Assembly (NCBI GenBank): GCA_951406725.2
Contig: OX597827.1
Span: 38,688,001 to 38,752,000, forward strand
Source: Octopus vulgaris
Lineage: Eukaryota
DNA length: 64,000 nucleotides
Direction: 5' to 3'
The position numbers were made by a program, and so were the translations under genes. Positions within the stretch are counted from its first letter, which is position 1, and each line of letters starts with the position of its first letter. A model generated the notes under the pieces. It saw nothing but the letters and a program-made list of their open reading frames with translations, had not been told where the DNA came from and made no database searches. Below are positions 3,601 to 33,589 of the stretch, piece by piece.

Positions 3601-6600
3601 ACTGGCATGGTTGGACAGTTTGACAGGAGCTGGCAAACCAGAAGACTGCTCCAAGGTCTGCTGTCTGCTTTGGCAGGGTTTCTTTGACTGGAAGCCCTTC
3701 CTAGTGTTAACCACTTTACAAAGTGAACTGAGTACTTTTTATGTGACACCGGCACCAATGAGGTCTCCAAGTAACTAGCAAGACATGACCCTTCAGCTGA
3801 TGGAAGAGTAGTATTAAGGGAGGTGGCATTGTGCCAAGTAATGATAGAGGGACAGAAGCAGGTGTCTTGCTGTAGAGGCAATACATGGCTACCCCAGTTT
3901 GAAAAGGAGAGAGAGAAGATGGTGAAAACGATGTGTTAGGGTATACCCTCAATTTACAGGGAGGCGTTCCATGCTTACTTATAAGAAATTGTAAAAACAA
4001 CATATGATGTGAAATAATCCGAACTTAATAAATGCTATTAATATTTCTATTTATTTTCACATTAATTCTTTTCTCTATCATATTTCTGCAGAGAATATCA
4101 GACTAAAAATTCTGAACCACAAACTGGATGGTTTTCTGCAATCGCTAACATGGTAAGTTTTATTTTTATACTTGACTCCCACTTTGATGGAATATAGATT
4201 TTTTTTTATAATGTGTGTGCATTTCTTTGGTAGCATGGCTGGGATGTTTTTTTTTGTTTTTTATCTGACTATTTTTGTTTAGATCTAGACACTTTCATAC
4301 ATTTAACTACTCAACCATGAAGTTGGGGGTGGAGTGAAAATGCATGTTTGTGTTTAATTGTGTGCCTGTGTTTGTGTATGTATCTGTAGTTGTGTCTGTG
4401 TGTGTATTGAATCATCCCAAAAATAATGCAGCTTTTTTATACTTCTTTCATTTTTCAAAATTAAGACAAAGTCCATTTTAATCTAAAATATACTCTCCTC
4501 CATTTTCTTCAATGTTCTTCCATCTATCTGGTGGACTTGCAAGGCTCCTCTTCTAAAATTCAGTTTTCTATGAAAAATACTCCTCCAGTACTGTTCTGAC
4601 TCTGTCTACAAAGTTCATATTTTTTCCGTCTAAATGATTTTGAAGACTGTGGAATAAATGATAATCAGGTGGAGCAATGTCTGGTGAATTATGTGGGTGG
4701 GGCATTATTTCCCATTCAAACTGCTTCAGCCTTTGGAATGTCATCCTGACTGTATGTGGCCGAGCATTATCCTGATGAAAGAACACCTTTTGTCTTGAAA
4801 CCAAAGATGGTGATTTTTCTTCTACCACTGGTTTAAGCCATTCAAGCTGGTCACAGTAGATCTCCATTTTGTTTGGGCTTAAATGTTCAAAGTGGACTAA
4901 ACCTTTTATATCCCACCAAACAAATAACAACACCTTACATGAGTGAAGTCCTTCTTTAGCCTTGGGTGCCTGTGTTTCTCCTTTCCCCACCCACAGTCTT
5001 TGGCACTTGACATTTTTATAGAGAACCCATTTCTCGTCACCAGTTACTATTTGGTCCAAAAAAAGTTCATTCATAAGATATAACAGCAAAGAAGAGCACA
5101 CATTCACTCTCTGATGCGATTAGACTTGGAAAGTTTGTGAGGAACTCATTGACTTTTCCGATGGCAATGAATGGTTGAATGACCAAATCCAAGCTTCTCT
5201 GTTAGTTCCTCAACAGTTACAATGGGATTTTGTTCTATCATGGTTTGCAGGACATCCTCATCAAGCTCTACAGATCTTCCAGGACAAGGCTCGTCTTCTA
5301 GGCTGTAGTTTCTGGCACCGCTACTGACACTGGCTTATGTTTATTGTCCAATCCCTATATACTGCATTAATATTCCTTGCACTTTCTGTTGCATTGTTGC
5401 CTTTATTGAAGTCATAAAGCAAAATATGCTTCTTTGTCATTTCTATTATAGCTTTGAATAAATAACTATCAAGACTGAACTGTTCTCTTCAAAACTTGCA
5501 CTAAGAATAAATACAAGGTAAAATTACTACCTGCTTTCATAGCAAATTGATGCAGGTAGCTAAACCCGCCCTCCAGCTTTTAGTTCATGCAATTGAAAAA
5601 ACTGCATTATTTATGGGATGACCAAATATATCACAATTTCACAAACTCCACACATCATGTCCGAAAGAAAGTTTTATAATAAAAAATAAGTGTATGTGTA
5701 GATTTATGTACAAATGAGTATATCATTTATAATCTATACACAACACAGAATAGCACTTTGTATCAAAGGAAGTTTTCTTTAGAGACTTTGTATGTTAAAA
5801 AGACAGCATGCTTGGAATGATGTAGATTTATATAGGCAGGGAGGGGGCAGCAAAATGAGTAATTTCTGATTTCTTGTTATTTTGTACTATTGTGTCATTG
5901 TTGGGAGTAAAAATTGGTCAGCATATTGTTGTTGAAGTTAAGAGAGTTTGAAACCTCATCAGATGACAGGTACTTTTCTTTTCAAGAAATTTTTCCACAA
6001 CTTTGACCTGATTTTAATTGAGGTTGCTAATAAAATACCTGGATAATTTTTGGTGTTTAAACTAATAATATTCTTACCTCTGTTGGATTCTAAGTCAATT
6101 TTTTTTCCCCACACTAATGTCTAATTTCATAATTTTTAATTTTCAAAAAATCATGTTTAAACCAAGGAAAATGAGTGACTAATTTCAATAATTTTTTTTC
6201 TCTTTAACTGCATGGTGTGTAAACATAATCATGATGAGGGACACTCCAGCATACTTTGAAGAAGCTATAGAGAATATTTTTATGTTGATTTTTTTTATAT
6301 AGTCAAATTTTGTTAATTTCATTTCATATGCCATTCTTCTATGATCCTCTTTCAATTTGACCTATATATTTTTAATTTTTGTTGCTGTATGCAAGGAATA
6401 TAATATTAAGCTTCACTATGTCGCCAAACATAAGTCACAAAACAATGAATTAAACGGAGAAAGAAGGAAGATGAAAATAGTTGAATTGAAGAAGAAGCTT
6501 AGTTCACAACAGAACAATTTCACAAAACATGTTGGGGAAACTGGTTTATGTACAAATGTTAGTCATTTAATAGCTGAAAAATTGGCTCAGAAGGGTAAGC

Positions 6601-9600
6601 CACTGATAGATGGCGAATTAATAAAAGAATATTGTAATTGCTTTTAATGATTATTGTCCCGAGAAGGTGAACTTATTCAATGAAACAAGTCTGTCACATC
6701 AGACAATTGGTAGAATTGATGACTTAGCTGACATTATTGTGAGTACATTGCAAACCCAGTTATCTAAATGTGTTCATTACAGTTTAGTATTGGGCAAAAG
6801 TACTGATCAAAGTGACACTGCACAGTTGGTTATTTCCATCAGGGGAAGTGATGTCAATTTTAATATCATTGAAGAAATGTTGGGTGTGTGTCATATGAAG
6901 AGTATGACGACTGGCAGGGGCATAACTGAGCATGTTAAATTTATCATTAGAAAAGTTCAATGTTGATAGAAATAAAATTAATTCGATTAGAACTGATTGT
7001 GCTCCTGCATTAACTGGTAAAGATAATGGGTTTATTACTTTATTCAAAGAAATAGTTGATCATGATATACTTAGCTATCATTGCTTGATTCATCAACAGC
7101 AATTATGTGCTCAAAAATTAAATATGAAACAGTTGATGACAGATATTGTGAACATTGTTAATTTTATCAGATCTCAGGGATTGAACCATTGTATATTTAC
7201 AATGGTTCAATTGTATATTGGTATAAGCATACATGGTAGAAATTGGCAGTGAGTATGAAGACGTTATTTATTTCTCAAAAGTCAGATTGCTCAGTCAAGT
7301 AGCAACTTTGAATAGATTTCAATTATTGTTGCCTGAAATAAAACAGTTCATGCAAAGCAAAATGCAAAATGTAGGTTTTTTATCAAATGAAGAATGGTTA
7401 AATGATCTGTCCTTAGGAGATATCACTGAAATTTAGCTGAACTTAATTTGCATTTACAAGGAAAAGACCAATTATGTTGTTCAATGTTTGAGCGAATAAC
7501 AAGTTTTACTAAGAAATTAGAACTTTTCATAATACAATTGGAGGGTGGAGAAATTGTACATTTTCAGAATTTATCTAAAAGATAAGAAGAGTTTCCTATG
7601 AACTTTGAAAAATACACTAAATTATGTGAAGCTTTGTTAGAAGATTTTACAACCAGATTTTCTGACTTCAGAAAGATAGAAACTGAACTAAAATTGTTGA
7701 GTGATCCATTTTCATTTATTTATGTGGAAGCACCAGCCAAATATCAGCTAGAACTCATTGAGCTTCAAAGTAGAGAACCTTTGAAAACTTATCATAGAGA
7801 ACCTGTCCTTCTTGACGTTTACAAGAAATTGCATTCTTTCAATGAATTTCATCAAATTGCCAATTTAGCTAGAAAACTATTGTGCATGTAAATTAGTATA
7901 TACTGCTGTGAACAATTCTTTTCGTGTGTGAAAAACATCAAAACTGCTGAAAGAAATAGGTCGAGTGATTGCCATTTAACACACATTCTTAGAGTAAAGA
8001 ATAGCACCATAATAGCATATATTGAGAATATCATAAAAGGAAAGCAATGCCTAAAATCACTTTGATTTTATTTTGGTTAAGTGTAATTTTATTTTTACTG
8101 TCAACAACATATTATTTTGTATTTATATTTGTTATCAAATAATTTGGTTAATGTTAAGTACCTCTGTGGCCCGGTGAATATACTTAAATTTATAATTTGG
8201 CCCGCTAGGAAAAAAGGTTGGACATCCCTACTCAAAAAGAATGGAGATAGTTTTCTGAAATTGTGTTCAGATTATGTTATAGTGGTGTTAGTGCATTTAG
8301 AGATGGTCGTTTGCTTAGCTGACATAGTTTTTGTAAGGTAGTGAAAATTTTGTGAAAAAAAATTGTTTTTTTCTCAGACAAAAATGCAGTAAATCTTACT
8401 TATTGTATCCCATCTACCCTTAACTTTAAAATAAGAACCAGTACTGAGGGTTATTTAACTGAAAATATCTTCCTCAAAATGTTTAGCCTTGTGAACAATA
8501 GCGTCGTTTCCAGCAAGCTAACCACTACTAAGTTCACTGACTAAATTGTCAAGCAATTCAGATGGAACAAATATCACAAGGTACTTTTCTTCGAAAGCGC
8601 CGGTTTTTCAATTTTCCCGAAAGATGTAATAATATATACTGCAATTTTTTTGCGTAGTAACCTATATCAGATTACAAATAGTGTTTTATTGTTTATAAAA
8701 TATACTATAAAACGATAATTAAGTCAATTTACTTGATCGCAGTATTCACAAGCTCCCTCATTGACCCATTATTAATTACACTCCACCTGTAGAATTCCCC
8801 AATGTCTAGAAAAATTATTCAGTGTGTTGTTTTTGTCTATAGAATATACCGTAAAACGCTCAGTTCTGTAAAATGATCGTTTATTTGAAGTTGAGTGGTA
8901 TATCTTTTCCATGTGGTAACTTCTACTACTTTTGACTGAACGTTGTTTACATATATATTCAATAACTTTATTTATAAGATTAGCTATGATGCTAAACTAC
9001 ATTCGGTAGTGGTGCGGAGGTAAAGAATACGTACACCACTCGTTTTCGGCGTAACTCTAAGTCCTAACCTTTAAACACCGCGTGTGCATATTCTTTACCT
9101 TCGCCCGGAAGTGGGAACCACCTCTTAACCACTTTGGACCCAAGTCTACTCAGACCCGGAGTAGTATTACCGGTCATGGTCCTGACTGTGGGTTAAATAG
9201 TGTGTAACCACATTGAAATCACGATATGCAAAATAGTGGATGTGAAGTGTTTCGGTCGATGAACGTATTGAATCAATTGTGAACCTACGTAGTCGTGGCG
9301 TGAGCAAATGAGCTATTTCAGCTAAGTGAAAGTCTGGTCAAAATAAATATTTATGCTTCGACGCTCTTTTGCAAAGAATTATATTAGCTCCGGTATCTAA
9401 AATAATCGGTTAGTAATCCTTCTAGGCTAATTCGGAGAATCAGACAGGGTGTCATGTCGTATGTCGTAACAAGGTTAACGGCGACATGTCTCACGTATCA
9501 GTACGTGATAACCCGATTCATCATTTCTTCTGAACTCAGAAGGATCGATTAGTGGTGTTTTGCGACTTTAACTTGTACATTTTATCTTATGATACATCAC

Positions 9601-12600
9601 GTGATATATCTTATTTGCATATTGTCAGCTGAAATTTCTTTGATTATTAATTTCTGAGGAATATTATTGGGATGACATAGGAGTGATGTTGTTTAAATTC
9701 GAAGTTTCAATTGTTTCTTACTTAATACATGAATTCATTTGAAATGTTGTAATGGAATTGTCTAATTACGTTTGTATGTCAGCGACTTGAAGAGTTGGAG
9801 GGTGGCGAGGAATCAGGGGAGATGACTGAGGCAATGTTTTTTTTTTTTATTTCTAATTCATAGTTGTTTGTTCCCAGGTCAATCTTGATCCAAGACATTT
9901 CAAAAGTGACCATCCGTTATTTTATCTTTTATTTTTATTTTCTTACAATGTGTCTTACCTTTGAAAAAAAAATTAAACATTAGATAATGAAGTCCTTAAT
10001 AATCTGTTAAGCTTTTTCTTACAACATTTCTGTTGTTTCAATTAATTTTGAAAATGATGAAGAATTTAGTAAAATTCTTTGTCATTATTAACTTGGTGTT
10101 TGGAACATAAAATAAAGTGAAATTTTGATAGAAATTTTTAATTTGAATCTCTTTAAAATACAAATTCCATATCAAAGAATAAGGGACAGTCTCAAGTGGT
10201 TTGGTATCAAAATCATTAAAAGGCAAAAATTGAAATTACATTTGATCAACTAGAAGTCAAAATTGTGGGTTAAATTTTGGTTTCTAACATTGTCACTTGT
10301 GGAATATTTTATTGAATTCATTTCAAAATAACAAATATTTGTTTATGTTATTTTTAGGTTGGTAACATGTTTGTTGCAGAAGAGAAGACAGTGGAATCAG
10401 TCAGGTAAATATCAAATGTTAAAAATTTTCTGGTGGGAGGTGCTGAAAATAATCTGTTTTATAATTATTTTTACTAATCCAGCAGGTCCTGTAATTAAAG
10501 GTACTTCAACTATGACTATTTGTCTTTCTTATTAGTCATAGTCTAATACATCTCAACCATCTTTTGCCTATGAGCCTCTTTGATTCCTATTTTACATGGG
10601 TGAACCTTCATAGCCATTCAGTGTTTAAAAAATCCTGTTATTATATTTTTATAATTAAACATTATTAGGAATTGTATTGTTTTGTATGTTTTCTTATATT
10701 TTCAGAGCCAATGATTCCATCTTACTGGCCCTTTATGAAGCTATTCACTTAAATCGTAATTTCATCACAGCTCTGACACATGTTAGTATTATCTGGAGTT
10801 TTCTTCATTTATTTTTCTTACACAATGTAAATTTCAACCAGATAGTTACATGAACTGAAAGAGAGAAAAATGAACAAACGCACGCACGGTAAACCACGAA
10901 TCCACATACATAGTACAATATAACAAGCTTTCCAGAGATGTGTAATCAGGCAATTATTCTTTCTCAGTCACTTATCACATCTTGAGTTCATTACTTATTT
11001 GGGCATCAACACACTAAAGTTTCAACATCTAGTAGCAGATTTAATAGAAACCCACAAAATTATCCACCATCTTTCCAAGTTGACTGTGTGGGGCACTAGC
11101 ATTATGCTAGGTGATGAAAGGTTAAAGTATGAAGGATGAGGCAAGGATAGGTTGTTTTTTTTTTGGGGGGGGGGTGCTGTAGAGGAGATACATGGCTACT
11201 TGCATTATACAAGAATGGATGGGATTAATTAAGGTGGAGCTGGAAATAGAGATAAAGATGATGGTGATGAGGTGCCAGGGTGGTTTTGAAGACAAAATAT
11301 CAGGAAGGGTGTTTATAGAGGTAGAAAAAACTGTAATAAATTAATATATTTCTATATCATCCATATATGAAGGCAATATGACTCCATAACTGCAGTCAAT
11401 GACTGAAGCCTGTAGAAGTTTATACATGTTATATTGTGATGAGATATTTGTGTATCATGAATACATGAGATGTATTGTTAGCTAATTCACTTATCAAGTT
11501 TTATAAACCATCATTCACTAGGCACACACACCATCTACACCAGCAACACCACCTGCGTCTCCAGCATTCCCTACCTCATTACCAACAGAAGAACAAGGTA
11601 AGTTTGCTTTTTTTCTTGCATTTTCATTGTCTTCTCAGTAACAACTTACTGCTGTAAGCAGTGGTAGCACTATGAAATTTACCAGCGTTCATTTAAAAGC
11701 TGTCTCATCATGTCTAGTTAAGACAGTCAATTCTCAAGTGCTTTAGTCCATTAGCAGGACATATGGATCATGGGATAGTACAGTCCACTTAGCTGTAAAT
11801 AGATCCACAGTTAAATAGTTTGCCTTACTGTAAATAGGTACATGAGAAAGTAAAGTCTGTACATATGTGCACTCCATTGCAGTGGTACAATTTATGCTAT
11901 ATCCATGGCCCAGTAGACCTGATTGCAAATAGGTGCCATTAGATGGTACATTTCATTCAACTATACACCATGTGGTGGCACAATCAATTTTTTTGTAAAT
12001 AGTTATCAGTTTGCTAGAGTCCACCTAGCTCTAAATAGCTACTGTAGTAGATGGTTTGAAAACTATTATTACTTCTTTCTAAAAAAAATTGAAATATTTC
12101 TGTCTACAATAAACATTTGTGGAGGTGTGTAGGTTAGGGTGTCAGCATCATGATCGTAGGTTTGTGGTTTTGATTCCTGGACCGGGCGACGCATTGTGTT
12201 CTTGAGCAAAACACTTCATTTCACGTTGCTCCAGTCCACTCAGCTGGCAAAAACGAGTAACGCTGTGATGGACTGTCGTCCCATCCAGCTGGGGAACACA
12301 TACGTCTGGGAAACCAGGTGTGTGTGTGTGTCCAGTTTTGTAGGACCCTGTTCCCCTGTCCCATCTCCTTGCCCTGCATGTTTCATGTTCCACCACTCTG
12401 TTCTGAGCTACGCCTCATTGCCTACCTTCCCACCTCATTGGTTCATATGCATCCTCATTGGTTCATATCCCACTCTGTGCCGCAAGTCTTTGTCTTATCT
12501 TCCATTTCTCTTTCCTGTCTAGTGTCACACCTCATTGACCTGTGTGCCACTTCTCTGTTTTCTGTCAGTTTTCTCTTCTCAGTTTTTATATCTCCACATC

Positions 12601-31830: not shown

Positions 31831-32188
31831 TAAATAAGTAACATCCTTGTTACTTATTTACATTCTGTTCACCTAACTTGGAGCTGTGCAAACTATACTG
31901 AATTGGCAAGGTGCCTCAATTGAAGTACCTAATTCAACTGAATCTTAATTATGTTTTATATATGTGTATATATATATTGATCAATCGATTGATTATGATA
32001 CTGAGAATTCATTTGTGACATTTTTAATAAATTAAATTATTTTGTTTAAACTTCTAAGTATTCTGTGTTTAATATAAAAATTAAAATGAGGAAGAAAAAA
32101 TATGTGTAATAAGGCAAATTAATTTCCCTACGTAAAATTTCCATAACGGATGTACAAATGTAGTGTGTAGATTTTTTTTTCCTTTTTT

Positions 32189-32296
32189 GATCCTTCTGAG
32201 TTCAGAAGATATGATGAATTGGATAATCACGTACTTATACGTGAGACATGTCACCGTCACCTTGTTACGACTTATATGGCATGACATCTTGTCTGA
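32189..32296 (+). ncRNA. SNORD13: U13/SNORD13 box C/D snoRNA copy B (intergenic, between ARMH3 and BRD8)
   Basis: 5' guide GATCCTTCTGAGTTCA (32189-32204), box C ATGATGA (32211-32217), guide ACCTTGTTACGACTT (32259-32273, 15-nt complement of 18S AAGTCGTAACAAGGT), box D CTGA (32293-32296). Confidence 0.92.
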
Positions 32297-33589
32297 TTCT
32301 CAAAATATTCAAGAAGGATCAGAACCTTTACTTGATATTAAAAAAAAAAACCCCAAAACAGAACGAAAGGAGGGAATATTTTCGATAATTTAGACCCAGA
32401 TAAATAAGATTGGGAACCTCACGGTCTTAGTGTACTGTTGGTTATAGGTCTGCTAAATTGTAACTTGAACATGTCTTAACAATCTGCTTAAATACTTATC
32501 ACGAGCTAAGGAAGGATTATTTACGTGGTCGTCTGTTCTATAAAAAAAATGAAAGAAGCAGTCAAATATCCCTTCTGAAACCTAAACCCTGCTATACTTA
32601 AAAAGGGAAAGTAAAAATAGTATGCTATAGTATATATATATAGTATCTTATATGCCGATATATATATATTTAATTCTTTAATCAGAAATAAGAAGCCATA
32701 AGAAATATTAGCTTACTTTTCCATTCGAATATATATGGTTATTTTACTGTCGAAGCGATAACACTTTCTTTCTCATTCCCAAACGAAGTGCATCTCATGG
32801 TAAATTAAACTTATCGCGTTCATTCCTGTATGTGAAATACTTAAATATTTCACGCTTTTCGGTCACAACGCCTAACTAATATTTGAATAGTTATAAAAGA
32901 AAAAATTTGGAGGACATAATAGACGTTAACGCTTCACAGTGTGAATCCAAGACTAGGTCATCATCGAACCGACAATGTTGAAACGGACAATAAAATATTC
33001 AGATAGACTTGAAGTCTTAGTTCTAACATGAGACCTTTTCTGTATTCGAATGATGGAAAAAATATAATTTTATTGCAACTAAATTAATAATTAGAAAGAT
33101 CCGAAAGTATGTGCTAAGATTTGAATGTAAATGGTATAAGGGATCTTAGTTAACTAGAAATTGGGTTGAATTCTGTCTGTCTAAAGGAAAAGATCCGGTA
33201 TAAGATCTCAAGAAGCACCAATATGAGCTGGCATTCGAGAAGCTGCAGTTCAAGTCCATATTACATTTTTCTCTTTCGAATTGATATAATGTCTAATATT
33301 TTTATTAATAATAACTGAAAATCTAATTTATCACAAATGTTAACTTTAAAAAATATTATCAATTATCTTTTACTGGTACTATTCGTATATACCTTAAATT
33401 TTTTTTAGTCACTCACAAATTTTAATAATATATATTATCATTTATTAAAACACTTTGTTTCGTTTAATTCTATAATTTTGATGTCAAAGCTGGATATCGA
33501 GAAGACTATAAGAATGGACTTTTATGTGCAAGAGCTACAATGAAACCAAAAGGTGTACGTAATTCAAATTGGGTGGAAGAAAAGAGGGA

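Follow-up and report, generated by a model that had tools for sequence, protein, structure and literature searches.

Two SNORD13 genes on opposite strands of the window

Two SNORD13/U13 genes were found on opposite strands of the window, the 64,000-nt stretch of Octopus vulgaris DNA analyzed here, with copy A on the minus strand (mature RNA at about 9438-9546) and copy B on the plus strand (mature RNA at 32189-~32299). Copy A matched the Rfam model RF01210 over 9545-9438 at 49.9 bits against a gathering cut-off of 46. Copy B scored under this cut-off (31.3 bits, E = 3e-4) and was assigned as a SNORD13 box C/D snoRNA gene from this match together with its identity to copy A (~85% over 131 nt) and its kept stems. 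We infer that the mature copy B RNA starts at G32189 or A32190, and its 3' end was placed in the same way. By eye, the mature sequence of copy A is identical to an Octopus sinensis entry in the supplement of PMC9226516, whose Supplementary Data 1 lists two octopus SNORD13 sequences without flanks. In the part of that supplement available to us, both octopus entries are of the A type and stop 4 nt past box D, and neither copy B nor the trailer described below is among them.

Boxes C and D were at the expected places in both copies. In copy B, box C lies at 32211-32217, as identified from the sequence and the Rfam alignment of copy A, and box D (CTGA) at 32293-32296. The 5' antisense leader of copy B (32189-32204) comprises 18S-A (32189-32198) and 18S-B (32200-32204) and is predicted to form a duplex with the 18S 3' end of this genome of -21.3 kcal/mol when the G is included and -16.8 kcal/mol from the A. 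The internal antisense elements 18S-C were also predicted to pair with the 18S end of this genome in both copies (-22.5 and -23.0 kcal/mol), the copy B element at 32259-32273 forming the -23.0 kcal/mol duplex with the helix 45 flank. Three internal stems kept all 18 of their 18 pairs between copies A and B, two through changes on both sides and two with a change on one side, in a comparison of only two sequences whose score was reached by 114 of 500 shuffles. Because all of these pairs are kept, two of them by both-side changes, copy B looks constrained, though with two sequences this is a weak indication.

Among the 32 of 73 window open reading frames scanned with Pfam, we found no host-gene exon, the only matches being one transposase fragment and one low-complexity hit. 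The transposase fragment (Transposase_1, PF01359) lies on the minus strand at window positions 4571-5119 (E = 2e-15).

A trailer complementary to the leader follows box D in both copies

In copy B, a 15-nt linker after box D (32297-32311) is followed by AGAAGGATCA (32312-32321), which is perfectly reverse-complementary to TGATCCTTCT (32188-32197). The original prediction of a trailer 15 nt past box D that exactly complements the 5' end of copy B thus agrees with the sequence, and it is supported by the chance estimates and U1/U2/U3 controls given below. Positions 32312-32320 pair with leader positions 32189-32197 and would form the outer 3' strand of a precursor stem (stem-V-like). The tenth pair needs T32188, a base that differs in copy A and that probably lies upstream of the transcription start and is absent from the RNA. 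Copy A carries AGAAGGATTA at 9423-9414 on the minus strand, 16 nt after box D, and complementarity of the trailer to 18S-A extends over nine of nine pairs in both copies, the G included. The proposal that the copy A trailer sits at nearly the same spacing behind a diverged linker held for the spacing (15 versus 16 nt) but only in part for the linker, which is still predicted to pair in both copies.

The 8-nt trailer core was identical between copies at 8 of 8 positions, compared with 6 of 11 columns in the preceding linker and 3 of 11 in the following flank. A single change beside the core converts a G-C pair to G-U, and with the leader invariant between the two octopus copies there is no both-side change in the trailer helix. 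The 8-mer AGAAGGAT occurs four times on the two strands of the window, where 1.36 occurrences are expected, and three of the four are at or near U13 trailers; its probability in a given 30-nt window is ~0.0007. Of 20,000 random 40-nt windows, 0.93% contained an 8-nt stretch complementary to some part of the first 18 leader nucleotides. Compared with 1000 shuffled extensions, the leader:extension duplex was significant for copy A (p = 0.003) and copy B (p = 0.001). As controls, we used 28 U1, U2, and U3 loci of this genome (10 of at least 42 U1 matches, 10 of at least 48 U2 matches, and 8 of at least 30 U3 matches), in which the same complementarity reached 3-5 nt at most in 27 loci and 7 nt in one. 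The trailer is real in both copies. A separate trailer-like 9-mer at 32511-32519 on the plus strand, ~190 nt downstream of the copy B trailer, was taken as a chance occurrence.

A real complementarity could still be functionless, either a chance match inherited through one duplication or the relic of a small inverted duplication. Copies A and B are paralogues and hence not independent, and 8/8 identity at 50% flank identity has a probability of ~0.004, which is not negligible after a post-hoc choice. We consider this the least probable of the explanations weighed here, because a predicted inner helix is kept in both copies in different registers, leader:trailer pairing is enriched in distant homologues, and a functional equivalent is described in the sections of PMC9670809 available to us.

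The precursor extension is predicted to sequester the leader

The predicted duplex between leader and extension had two parts in both copies, an outer helix of 8-9 bp and an inner helix of 4-5 bp on the 18S-B side, with energies of -14.9 kcal/mol for copy A and -17.0 kcal/mol for copy B. In copy B, the inner 3' strand (stem-IV-like) at 32307-32310 is predicted to pair with leader positions 32198-32201. The copy A extension spans 9415-9433 on the minus strand, with the inner strand at 9433-9429, the trailer at ~9424-9415, and a 4-nt bulge between them. The inner helices of the two copies use different registers and are so short that chance could produce one.

Folding was predicted for extensions of different lengths, using energy models without proteins or a kink-turn. 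With 3-20 nt past box D, the leader of both copies folded into a local 6-bp hairpin (probability 0.97-0.99), and with 25-30 nt, leader nucleotides 1-8 paired with the extension in both copies (0.93-1.00). At 40 nt, the predicted trailer stem had a probability of 0.81-0.85 for a start at the G; for a start at the A, it dropped to 0.20 in copy A and 0.01 in copy B, with the local hairpin winning. This hairpin, with a 4-nt loop, lies at 32193-32208 on the plus strand (-7.0 kcal/mol), and the same sequence is present in copy A at 9542-9527 on the minus strand. It spans most of 18S-A and is predicted to compete with both the trailer and 18S.

A similar hairpin appeared possible by eye in the Aplysia SNORD13 entry of the PMC9226516 supplement, and not clearly in the other mollusc entries in the part available to us. 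A 13-bp stem involving bases upstream of copy B was also considered and rejected, those bases being unconserved in copy A and probably untranscribed.

The trailer appears to follow the guide rather than the rRNA

Nine nucleotides of the trailer are identical to the 18S 3' end. The identity then breaks at an A in the trailer, where 26 of 27 rDNA-end matches carry a G. This A is the Watson-Crick partner of the U in the guide. The earlier observation that the trailer matches the 18S terminus is therefore correct for 9 nt and ends at the A. Because the trailer has an A where the 18S of this genome has a G, its sequence indicates that it tracks the guide and not the rRNA. The likeness to 18S would then be a by-product of guide complementarity that needs no separate explanation, because any complement of an antisense guide resembles the target of that guide.

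The trailer had also been proposed to be an 18S mimic or target decoy in its own right. As a true mimic, it would be rDNA-derived or kept rRNA-like, titrating or auto-inhibiting the guide as its own function, and both the 9-nt identity and the masking that is part of the published model (PMC9670809, in the sections available to us) would fit. We nonetheless regard a separate mimic function as highly improbable and did not retain that proposal, since the informative position follows the guide and the trailers of the ciliate-like homologues described below are unlike the 18S end. In addition, the strands of the inner helix are unlike 18S and unlike each other, and the leader:18S duplex (-21.3 kcal/mol) is stronger than the trailer duplexes (-14.9 and -17.0 kcal/mol) by about 4-6 kcal/mol.

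Matches to the 18S 3' end were found at 27 places on many contigs, including a tandem run on contig 20 with ~18.5-kb spacing, and some of the scattered matches carry substitutions in helix 45.

Transcription signals and the mature 3' end

An upstream motif at about -58 to -60 and a downstream motif rich in A/T are common to the U1, U2, and U3 genes of this genome. Compared by eye, a PSE-like element of copy A at -60 (9586-9605, minus strand) resembles the upstream motif in position and sequence, and a 3'-box-like element (9394-9414, minus strand) directly after the copy A trailer resembles the downstream motif of U3, U2, and U1. These motifs are suggestive of a precursor end just after the trailer in copy A. 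The promoter-like region upstream of copy B (32127-32160, plus strand) has diverged; it is partly conserved with copy A and matches the U1/U2/U3 motif weakly, and by eye both the promoter and the 3'-box likeness of copy B are weaker than those of copy A. From these signals we infer that the copies are transcribed independently as snRNA-type genes. The sections of PMC9226516 available to us report independent transcription of insect SNORD13, based on a TMG-cap pull-down, and those of PMC7610016 report that human SNORD13 is read through when INTS1 and CPSF73 are depleted together, implying snRNA-type transcription.

With an snRNA-type gene, the trailer could itself be a 3'-end signal akin to the 3' box, read as DNA or by a protein, with its complementarity to the leader being incidental. 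The trailer is purine-rich and located 16-25 nt after box D, in the position of the 3' boxes of snRNA-type genes. This explanation is the least improbable of the alternatives but remains very unlikely, given that the U1/U2/U3 downstream motif is different and A/T-rich, and that the copy A match to that motif begins only after the trailer. The trailer was present in none of the 28 U1/U2/U3 loci when their flanks were inspected by eye, nor does it match their shared motif. In distant homologues, moreover, trailer and leader vary in concert.

On contig 29, we found two truncated derivatives of copy A (L002:1501-1598 and L007:1501-1580), both of which begin at or inside the leader and lack the trailer. 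One of them, beginning at the leader A, continues into a microsatellite, and the other lies inside a short interspersed repeat, shows junction microhomology, and ends at box D. We found no truncated copies derived from copy B in this genome. The trailer-less sequences fit a mature RNA that lacks the trailer. Separately, this genome has at least 48 full-length matches to U2, and where the Rfam model ends the U2 genes carry a conserved short stretch able to form a hairpin.

Leader:trailer pairing recurs among distant U13-like loci

A motif scan of metagenome contigs yielded 119 loci (L039-L157). These were sorted by box D and an 18S-B motif, both outside the scan pattern, into 66 U13-like loci, 36 chance matches, and 17 ambiguous loci that were dropped. 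Removal of near-duplicates and of loci with less than 30 nt of flank left 32 U13-like loci and 28 chance matches. In Rfam, 25 of the 32 U13-like loci matched the U13 clan at E values up to 0.5, three of them over the cut-off.

The leader:extension duplex beat shuffled sequences (p<0.05) at 9 of 32 U13-like loci versus 1 of 28 chance matches (binomial 2e-5, Fisher 0.011), and a locus's own extension ranked in the top three at 9 of 32 loci (p = 0.002), with these p-values being optimistic since some loci are related. One of the nine significant loci, L079, has no Rfam match. The remaining 23 of 32 loci showed no significant leader:extension pairing. Over all 32 loci, own extensions did not differ significantly from cross-paired extensions (Wilcoxon p = 0.18), and raw duplex energies showed no difference between U13-like loci and chance matches (p = 0.90). 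At L049, L056, L080, L121, and L150, leader and trailer sequences vary between loci, yet they pair within each. In the ciliate-like homologues, the trailer pairs with the bases of the leader and is unlike the 18S end. Collectively, these comparisons suggest that leader:trailer pairing among distant U13-like loci is recurrent but not universal. Several of the U13-like loci (L044, L060, L077, and L129) have a classical short terminal stem adjoining boxes C and D.

SNORD13-like genes were present on nine telomere-capped contigs, with the telomere on the 3' side of L056, L065, L070, L072, L101, L111, and L155 and on the 5' side of L079 and L138. The repeats are of the G4T4 type, which we take to be spirotrich-ciliate-like, and the ciliate-type label of these nine contigs derives from the telomere repeat. 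An upstream motif near -50 to -60 is common to most of the telomere-capped loci. Six of them (L056, L065, L070, L072, L101, and L111) have a leader:trailer helix of nine perfect base pairs, with the telomere 29-31 nt after box D. In the sections available to us, PMC9226516 reports that no SNORD13 was found in algae or unicellular eukaryotes, and our literature search returned no paper on a ciliate U13 snoRNA.

The predicted octopus stem has a tested human counterpart

The original prediction raised the fold-back as possibly new for U13. It has already been published, and tested by mutation, for human pre-SNORD13 (PMC9670809; Thalalla Gamage et al. 2022), as the available sections of that paper make clear: the 3' extension of the precursor "masks its 5'-antisense region," and a region of ~15 nt beyond the mature 3' end is able to base-pair with human 18S-A and 18S-B, giving stems IV and V. 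Disruption of stem IV abolishes expression of human SNORD13 and compensatory changes rescue it, while stem V, which involves 18S-A, is not strictly required in human cells. A human 18S-B* mutant, in which a non-18S-like pair keeps the stem, is processed normally. Stems IV and V are described there as less conserved outside eutherians, yet "a recurrent feature," and Supplemental Fig. S3 surveys them across species and may already draw the octopus stem. The preprint of this work, in the part available to us, makes the same statements, and our literature search found nothing else on pre-SNORD13 and no paper on a pre-U13 extension; U13 is unmentioned in the available part of PMC3177221.

The octopus and human precursors belong to the same family. 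In human, the extension past box D pairs with 18S-A and 18S-B in an irregular two-part stem, for which the same sections of the human study propose a role in masking the guide and in helping the kink-turn to form or the 3' end to be defined; the octopus extension is predicted to pair in a similar way, the short inner helix on the 18S-B side being a candidate. The two precursors differ in their helices: the outer 18S-A helix (stem-V-like) is perfectly conserved in octopus, whereas stem V is dispensable in human, and the inner stem-IV-like helix shifts register between the octopus copies. The extension needed reaches ~25 nt past box D in octopus, compared with ~15 nt beyond the mature end for human SNORD13. 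A further difference is the competing local 6-bp hairpin predicted above for the octopus leader.

A similar arrangement is known for human pre-U8 (SNORD118), also a box C/D RNA with its own transcription, in which the functional 5' end and a 3' extension pair with each other. For this precursor, the available part of Badrock et al. (10.1101/2019.12.12.874594) reports that compensatory mutation rescues processing and proposes masking. U8 is nevertheless a different RNA, which acts in large-subunit processing and is linked to disease. No U8 match was found in the octopus genome, a negative result that is uninformative.

Discussion

We conclude, with a probability of roughly 0.88, that the trailer is the 3' strand of the known external stem (IV/V) of pre-SNORD13, which would mask the guide in the precursor until trimming. 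The proposal that a precursor stem masks the guide until 3' trimming, with a role in processing, corresponds to the published human model, and the predicted folds of both copies agree with it. Most likely, then, the octopus feature works as a stem in the precursor of a known snoRNA, the human version of which has already been described and tested.

The sequence of each copy contains box C, box D, the trailer, and three elements antisense to 18S. Each copy would be expressed as an snRNA-type Pol II gene whose transcript begins with the leader's G or A, and the precursor would be cut ~25-30 nt past box D, just before the 3'-box-like motif. The extension is predicted to form the two-part helix with the leader, its outer part 8-9 bp and its inner part 4-5 bp long, which would bring boxes C and D into proximity and may protect or time the 3' end. 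As shown in human, the stem would be needed for accumulation, and exonucleolytic trimming would then free the guide. In human, zebrafish, and fly, base pairing of mature SNORD13 to the 18S 3' end guides acetylation of a helix 45 cytidine by NAT10, and the octopus RNA would presumably act likewise.

The octopus feature, though real, is not novel: it amounts to re-discovering, in a mollusc, the pre-SNORD13 stem IV/V published in 2022. Its two paralogues provide a clean invertebrate case, with a hint that conservation in octopus lies in the outer helix, which human cells can do without. What may be new is this conservation of the outer helix, the competing hairpin of the mature leader, and the SNORD13-like genes on ciliate-type contigs. 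More speculatively, and with less than even odds, self-masking could be an ancient property of eukaryotic SNORD13 that has been repeatedly re-tuned, in octopus, ciliates, and other unicellular eukaryotes. The octopus guide might then pass through three states, a trailer duplex in the precursor, a local hairpin in the mature RNA, and a duplex with 18S, and never be free until NAT10 or the pre-ribosome opens it. The candidate SNORD13 genes on ciliate-type contigs would fill a gap named in the available sections of PMC9226516, and they would argue against guide-free 18S acetylation in those organisms.
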